Of a stretch of 27,378 nt of DNA, positions 13,597 through 13,692 are shown piece by piece. The notes beneath the pieces were generated by a model. It was not told where the DNA came from, searched no databases, and worked only from the letters and a program-made list of their open reading frames with translations. This DNA comes from Candidatus Baldrarchaeum yapensis (GTDB taxonomy: Archaea; Asgardarchaeota; Baldrarchaeia; Baldrarchaeales; Baldrarchaeaceae): positions 1 through 27,378 of the forward strand of contig JAEOSH010000024.1 in assembly GCA_016840465.1 (NCBI GenBank), read 5' to 3'. The translations under genes and the position numbers were made by a program. Every line of letters starts with the position of its first letter. The stretch's first letter is position 1.

Positions 13597-13692
13597 ATGC
13601 GCATAGTTTCAACAGCCATCGTAACTGTGAGATGGATTGCGTCAATAACCACCAGCACTACTACTTCTACTGCTATCACTACTACTCACTAA
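13597..13692 (+). CDS. Putative Thr/Ile-rich leader peptide (thrL-like, 31 aa) upstream of thrC
   Basis: ATG CGC ATA ... ACT ACT ACT CAC TAA = MRIVSTAIVTVRWIASITTSTTTSTAITTTH; 11 Thr and 5 Ile, with 9 Thr in the last 15 codons; ends 103 nt before the thrC ATG. Not in the ORF track (too short). Confidence 0.8.
   Translation: MRIVSTAIVTVRWIASITTSTTTSTAITTTH

Follow-up and report, generated by a model that had tools for sequence, protein, structure and literature searches.

Leader-peptide attenuation is a textbook mechanism of gene control in bacteria, and the described system closest in kind to the locus considered here is thrL of E. coli, whose 21 codons include eight for threonine and four for isoleucine. 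In archaea, transcription termination relies on U tracts together with aCPSF1 (FttA) instead of on terminator hairpins. Work in Methanococcus maripaludis ties at least two U4 tracts both to the highest termination efficacy and to the minimal aCPSF1 binding element (PMC8716108). Within the searchable literature we found no leader-peptide attenuator shown by experiment in an archaeon, in agreement with a preliminary description of the present locus, and no account of an aCPSF1-type U-tract terminator that is used conditionally.

Here we describe a candidate for such a system upstream of the threonine synthase gene thrC in Candidatus Baldrarchaeum yapensis. The window, that is, the whole stretch of 27,378 nucleotides that was analysed, is contig C35 of a 2.27-Mb genome that is distributed over 100 contigs and is 96% complete. 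This genome is the sole species representative of its family, and its order holds four other genomes. It is archaeal: TBP was detected with a profile that, among control genomes, matched archaeal ones only. Two indirect estimates of thermophily, an IVYWREL fraction of 0.457 and a tRNA G+C content of 70.5%, suggest that the host organism is probably a hyperthermophile. Along the DNA, a rare promoter motif, a Thr-rich open reading frame, a terminator-like cluster, a ribosome-binding site and thrC follow one another in the order expected of an attenuator.

Results

A threonine-dense reading frame ahead of thrC

The leader ORF occupies positions 13597-13692 of the plus strand, from an ATG at 13597 to a TAA at 13690-13692, and its 31 codons (plus the TAA) specify the peptide MRIVSTAIVTVRWIASITTSTTTSTAITTTH. 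Eleven of these codons encode Thr and five Ile, with nine Thr concentrated in the last 15 codons, so that the composition reported in the preliminary description is borne out by the sequence, the ORF list and the codon print-out alike. The same holds for its codon count, ten of the 11 Thr codons being ACT or ACC (eight ACT, two ACC, one ACA). Most of the Thr codons lie in a run on the plus strand at 13648-13686 that consists of three clusters (ACC ACC; ACT ACT ACT TCT ACT; ACT ACT ACT) and forms an imperfect (ACT)n array (TRF: period 3, score 33, 69% matches). Note that all three frames are open across the ACT repeat, reading Thr, Leu and Tyr, and that only the ATG marks the Thr frame as coding.

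Such a frame is exceptional in its own genome. Of 98,177 frames in the 2.27-Mb genome that run from stop to stop over 12 or more codons, none but the leader ORF reaches nine Thr per 15 codons; no other frame is as Thr-dense, and this one is found immediately ahead of thrC, on its coding strand. When short ORFs upstream of long ORFs are ranked by compositional bias, the leader comes second out of 4,572, preceded only by a poly-Pro frame at a contig end. TRF reports four period-3 arrays genome-wide, and the ACT run is the sole intergenic one. The leader is present in a single copy, with no second copy, related sequence or repeat family anywhere in the genome. As in the attenuator class, its codons are strongly enriched for the amino acid made by the downstream pathway.

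How often should one expect such a coincidence? Taking the Thr-pathway genes to be two thrC-like genes, two hom genes, an aspartate-kinase-like gene adjacent to hom, and thrS, the chance for the top Thr-dense frame to stand immediately ahead of any of them, and on the coding strand, is of the order of 1 in 1,000. The Thr-rich leader ORF thus exceeds chance expectation within its own genome. It was, at the same time, picked from very many scanned windows, and a few coincidences of this kind are expected across the whole scan; composition alone is therefore insufficient to settle what the ORF does.

The downstream gene was correctly named in the preliminary description. Its product scores 348 bits against TIGR00260 (cut-off 167) and 350 against NF006050 (cut-off 303) and carries the Pfam domain PALP, as befits a threonine synthase. 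thrC extends over 13796/13799-15016 of the plus strand, where public gene calls begin at the second ATG (13799), and is preceded on the same strand by a Shine-Dalgarno (SD) sequence, GGGGAGG, at 13788-13794. The stop codon of the leader lies about 100 nt upstream of thrC.

tRNA set and threonine pathway

ARAGORN recovered 32 tRNA genes, an incomplete set in which tRNA-Thr(GGU) and tRNA-Thr(UGU) are both present and no tRNA-Thr with an AGU anticodon was found. This fits the premise, put forward in the preliminary description, that a single tRNA-Thr(GGU) reads both ACT and ACC. Combining the tRNA set with the codons of the leader, ten of its 11 Thr codons rely on one tRNA, eight of them via G:U wobble, and the most frequent of them, ACT, is the rarest Thr codon of the genome at 19% (ACC stands at 24%). 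Judged by these codons, the leader ORF would be a sensitive reporter of tRNA-Thr(GGU) charging. The dependence of ACT and ACC on one tRNA is equally a trivial outcome of an (ACT)n origin.

Two homoserine dehydrogenases are encoded in the genome, one of them with an aspartate-kinase-like gene behind it (C48:5273-7526). There is also another thrC-like gene, longer than the first at 502 aa (C54:41769-43277). No protein of the genome reaches the TIGR00191 cut-off for homoserine kinase, the best scoring 45 bits, and the phosphorylation step of the threonine pathway may be carried out by a non-canonical enzyme. The thrS gene is split over two contig ends (C69:20454-21220 and C37:21-1001).

If leader-peptide control were a general device in this organism, similar leaders might be sought before other genes of amino acid metabolism. 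None was found among the genes examined: cognate leaders are absent upstream of both hom copies, of the second thrC-like gene and of thrS, where the 310-nt upstream region contains no Thr-rich ORF. The most biased upstream short ORFs genome-wide precede unrelated or unknown genes, and none among them is a cognate leader. A 13-codon ORF, MTTTRSYPRTQTT (C70:14104-14145), overlaps the start of a gene whose product combines a serine-dehydratase beta-chain domain with an ACT domain and is probably a chance occurrence or an alternative start.

Promoter and U tracts

BRE-like purine-rich bases and a consensus archaeal TATA box lie at 13548-13563 on the plus strand. The box itself, at 13555-13562, is a perfect TTTATATA, at the position given in the preliminary description. 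TTTAWATA occurs just 241 times in the genome, both strands counted, and 35 of the 68 sites that lie upstream of genes have a start codon 25-60 nt downstream. By this standard, the distance of 42 nt from the TATA box to the leader ATG is normal for the genome; the distance of 241 nt to thrC lies beyond every other case. The upstream DUF169 gene ends at 13444 and has T tracts of its own (13446-50 and 13476-81), so that the TATA box at 13555 opens a new unit, serving thrC. Leader ORF, TATA box at gene-like distance and thrC share the same strand, and no strong promoter intervenes between the leader ORF and thrC. Toxin-antitoxin-like pairs flank thrC, with PIN-like and UPF0175 genes upstream (11648-12515) and MazE/AbrB and PIN genes downstream (15672-16389).

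From the usual archaeal spacing between TATA box and start site, transcription would begin at around 13584-13588, some 25 nt past the box. The 5' UTR of the leader would then measure about 10-13 nt and carry only a weak SD-like match, GUGGU, to a 16S rRNA whose 3' end is canonical (GGAUCACCUCCU).

Beginning 9 nt past the leader stop codon, an oligo-T cluster (13701-13738, plus strand) presents a candidate attenuation terminator. It comprises three T5 tracts (13701-05, 13714-18 and 13727-31) and a T4 tract (13735-38), and it ends about 60 nt short of the thrC start. Clusters of this kind are uncommon: the genome holds just 47 triple-T5 clusters, and just 2.5% of its genes are followed, over the 60 nt past the stop codon, by two or more T5 tracts. 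The genome encodes an aCPSF1/FttA ortholog (932 bits), and four U tracts in succession after the leader make up what is predicted to be a strong archaeal terminator signature. No compact terminator hairpin of the bacterial type was found on the plus strand.

RNA folding

Two hairpins stand out in the predicted folds. The 5'-terminal one, H1 (13586-13654, plus strand), pairs 13588-13601, which contains GUGGU and the leader AUG, with 13638-13652, and its 3' arm is made up of leader codons 14-19, including the first ACC ACC. Its minimum free energy (MFE) of -25.0 kcal/mol (z = -3.70) is equalled by none of 200 shuffles. H1 is predicted to be stable to about 75 C and melted by 85 C, burying the leader start codon below about 75 C. 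The other, H2 (13739-13812, plus strand), pairs CUCC at 13754-57 with the core of the thrC SD at 13790-93, from where the stem extends over the start codons; its MFE of -27.7 kcal/mol (z = -2.66) is equalled by three of 200 shuffles. The predicted probability that the SD core is unpaired does not exceed 0.1 between 37 and 60 C and reaches 0.1-0.3 at 80 C, and the cost of forcing H2 open falls from 18.7 kcal/mol at 37 C to 9.6 at 60 C and 3.2 at 80 C. Quite apart from the leader, then, the modelled H2 could act as a temperature-dependent brake on thrC translation. Between the hairpins, the central leader (13655-13741) has no significant structure (z = -1.23).

Do the Thr codons take part in a switch? 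A GGU-rich segment, UGGCGGUGGU (13718-13727, plus strand), runs straight into the third U tract and can pair with ACY codons in several registers; in the nascent-RNA ensemble, UGGCGGUGG (13718-26) pairs with ACY codons of the Thr run at a probability of 0.8-0.98. When the leader is folded with a ribosome at different positions or with none, the stem adjacent to the U tracts forms on the empty leader and with the ribosome at the stop codon. It is absent when the ribosome occupies the Thr codons; the 5' arm of H1, set free, is then able to pair with the last Thr cluster. As modelled, this dependence of the stem on the position of the ribosome is the logic of an attenuator.

The pairing that underlies this logic is nonetheless at chance level. 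The folds do show the Thr run and UGGCGGUGG forming a terminator-like stem, yet the energy of the duplex is equalled or beaten by 233 of 1,000 shuffles and by 42% of real upstream windows. Pairing with an ACY repeat is open to any segment rich in GGU. The stem has a loop of more than 30 nt and does not appear in the MFE structure at 75 C. A terminator/antiterminator switch in the leader, as ribosome-mediated attenuation would lead one to expect, is thus without statistical support against both shuffled and real sequence.

Two further ways of coupling stalling to thrC were considered. One, in which a stall on the Thr codons would expose the ribosome-binding site of thrC, was rejected as a prediction, since H2 remains intact in every ribosome-occupied fold at 37, 60 and 75 C. 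The other comprises hairpin-free models, based on contact or on access of aCPSF1, in which a stalled ribosome predicts more termination, the wrong sign for a biosynthetic gene.

Distribution in related genomes

We searched for thrC in 60 relatives, 400 genomes of the phylum, collections of genome and metagenome contigs, and 5.8 billion proteins, and added contigs reached through the 90% clusters of ThrC and of the DUF169 protein encoded upstream. The region recurs in nine further contigs drawn from nine assemblies, each with a leader 100% identical to that of the window. These contigs represent essentially the same strain or population (0-8 differences in 5-7 kb) and, once two recombined tracts are set aside, match the window at more than 99% identity. 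The one diverged strain (L098, L059, L075) is mosaic, differing by 3-7% on either side and being identical over 12847-13949, coding sequence included. Identity over 1.1 kb that takes in neighbouring coding sequence carries no information on selection, or its absence, on the leader.

The tract upstream of this identical segment deserves mention in its own right. Compared with the window over 12082-12846, the metagenome contigs L098 and L075 depart from it by 6-10% in the UPF0175 gene, in the intergenic gap and in the 5' third of the DUF169 gene, after which they are identical to it for more than 1 kb. From its sequence, this mosaic resembles a tract of recombination that covers a toxin-antitoxin-like module.

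Of the outcomes that, according to the preliminary description, would speak against its proposal, two concern sequence comparison. One of them, variation of the ACT run by out-of-frame indels in the manner of a microsatellite, was not seen: the nine other contigs show no difference in length or sequence and hence no sign of hypervariability, which in nearly clonal material is a weak test. The other was the lack of a Thr-rich ORF upstream of thrC in close relatives, and here the comparison covers distant loci. Beyond the species, the closest ThrC in the searched collections is 64% identical over its full length or 68% over a fragment, and ThrC of this type occurs in 17 of the 400 phylum genomes. 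Across some 85 other thrC loci, mostly archaeal and all distant (ThrC at most 68% identical), no Thr-rich upstream ORF was found, the maximum being four Thr per 12 codons compared with eight per 12 here; the same-strain contigs are uninformative on this point.

Searching the window with Rfam at gathering scores, no family was reached, the Thr_leader family (RF00506) included. When the search was made permissive (E up to 10, positions 13400-13900), the sole match was a chance snoRNA on the other strand, and the T-box family (RF00230) remained unmatched. Elsewhere in the window, the approximately 250 nt upstream of thiC (16638-17957), at 16390-16637, contain neither a TPP riboswitch nor any other Rfam match.

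Discussion

A proposed threonine-sensing leader

The most economical reading of this well-framed feature is that of an attenuator: a leader peptide that senses threonyl-tRNA and so controls thrC. We hold this reading tentatively, at somewhat less than an even chance. As judged from sequence, what might be called the sensor half of such a device (promoter, ORF, codon bias, tRNA set, U-tract cluster and both hairpins) is well supported. Its output is a different matter. The original claim that the ORF senses charged tRNA in order to control thrC therefore stands as far as the anatomy of a sensor is concerned and falters at the output, where the pairing is at chance level and the folds leave the thrC ribosome-binding site closed. 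That the leader ORF is translated, that transcription terminates at the U tracts and that stalling is converted into read-through are steps we infer. Counting against an attenuator, too, are the burial of the leader start codon in H1 below about 75 C and the weakness of the SD-like match before it.

Under this reading, a ribosome would load at the AUG at 13597 while transcription is under way and would then have to read 11 Thr codons. With charged tRNA-Thr in plentiful supply, it would finish at the UAA and leave, so that RNA polymerase, now uncoupled, would meet four U tracts within 50 nt and most transcripts would end as a leader RNA of about 120-155 nt. With charged tRNA-Thr scarce, the ribosome would stall on the Thr run, and the transcripts reaching thrC would be more numerous or more stable. 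The actuator we prefer is one where the stalled ribosome covers ACY codons that would otherwise pair with UGGCGGUGG before the U tracts, the freed 5' arm of H1 being able to take up the last Thr cluster. It is also conceivable that a ribosome stalled near the 5' end stabilises the mRNA in the manner of ermC, a mechanism that would have the right sign and that we put forward by inference only.

A more specific proposal would be that a working attenuator was built recently by expansion of an ACT triplet, and that the stall decides over a hairpin-independent stop at the U tracts in which aCPSF1/FttA takes part. Taken in all its parts we consider this unlikely, if well within reach. Given that no relative has the element, the leader, if it works, would be a sensor caught in the act of being born from a triplet repeat.

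Alternative explanations

Other readings need to be weighed against the attenuator. Slippage in a long AT-rich 5' region might have produced the run as a chance low-complexity (ACT)n array, with the control of thrC left to other means, such as a protein regulator or H2. Several of the results above are what one would expect under this scenario: TRF calls the run as period-3, all three frames are open, the feature was seen in no relative beyond the same strain, the structural switch is without support, and the locus was selected from a very large number of scanned windows. Moreover, single-base changes of ACT cannot make a stop codon, so that an open frame comes at no cost. If we nonetheless find a chance array rather doubtful, it is on account of how rare triplet arrays are in this genome (four, only one of them intergenic), of the odds of about 1 in 1,000 against finding the top Thr-dense frame on the right strand upstream of a Thr-pathway gene, and of the precision with which the run is framed by a consensus TATA box at gene-like distance and, after the stop codon, by a rare triple-T5 cluster.

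That framing would also suit a separate small gene. Suppose that an RNA of about 120-155 nt is made in its own right from the promoter at 13555 and ends at the U tracts, either the mRNA of a 31-residue Thr-rich peptide or a trans-acting sRNA with a hairpin at its 5' end, then an ACU-rich, single-stranded seed and finally a tail of U, and that thrC uses a weak promoter of its own, such as the TTTTTATG at 13727-13734. A promoter, a significant 5' hairpin, an unstructured ACU run and a strong U-tract terminator are indeed the typical layout of an sRNA, and the TATA-like TTTTTATG, 69 nt before thrC, falls inside the distance range of the genome. It fits only six of the eight consensus positions, however, and neither an Rfam match nor a second copy or related sequence in the genome backs a separate gene, which would reduce the Thr codons before thrC to coincidence. 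Read-through from the strong upstream promoter would, besides, still feed thrC, at which point an independent gene shades into attenuation; as a distinct explanation it is improbable. Far more so is direct sensing by the RNA without a ribosome, whether the ACY run or the UGGU/GGUGGU motifs bind tRNA-Thr in the manner of a T-box or the leader is a metabolite riboswitch. What recommends it are two resemblances: the ACY codons are complementary to a GGU anticodon, and UGGU recalls the T-box bulge that pairs with the 3' end of tRNA. We know of no T-boxes in archaea. Neither the T-box nor any other Rfam family gave a credible match over 13400-13900 at E up to 10, and the central leader (13655-13741), at z = -1.23, has no significant structure.

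Implications

Should the attenuator prove real, it would show how a eukaryote-like transcription apparatus responds to where a ribosome stands, and would offer a direct handle on the coupling of transcription and translation in archaea in the form of a compact cassette of 250 nt. Leader-peptide control would, on the more specific proposal above, have been fitted to the way archaea terminate transcription and have arisen de novo in a single lineage. Should it prove a coincidence, the locus would still serve as a useful warning of how convincing a chance cognate ORF can appear.

Comparison with known systems

How does the locus compare with systems already described? Like enterobacterial thrL (RF00506), it places a short Thr-rich ORF with interspersed Ile in the 5' leader of a threonine biosynthesis gene, and in both cases a termination signal, here the candidate U tracts, lies between that ORF and the structural gene. 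Unlike thrL, it matches RF00506 in neither sequence nor structure, belongs to an archaeal host with TBP/TATA promoters, and has a cluster of U tracts without a compact GC-rich hairpin and without a supported antiterminator/terminator pair; and while thrL controls thrABC, the present leader precedes a lone thrC.

A second group of relatives are leaders that do without a terminator, namely translational attenuation and mRNA stabilisation of the ermC type and the leaderless poly-Cys uORFs of mycobacteria (bioRxiv 10.1101/834739), where a ribosome stalled on a uORF alters the expression of the downstream gene. The resemblance lies in the ribosome-binding site of the downstream gene, which is here held inside a hairpin, H2. 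It ends with the geometry: about 100 nt separate the stop codon of the ORF from the ribosome-binding site of thrC, and, with H2 intact in the folds, direct unmasking is not predicted.

With the aCPSF1 (FttA) U-tract terminators of archaea, finally, the locus shares four tracts of at least U4 within 38 nt, in a genome that has the aCPSF1 gene. Those terminators sit at gene ends, whereas this cluster sits inside a 5' leader, before thrC. The leader would represent a known kind of switch in archaeal form, one that stands outside the Thr_leader and T-box families of Rfam.
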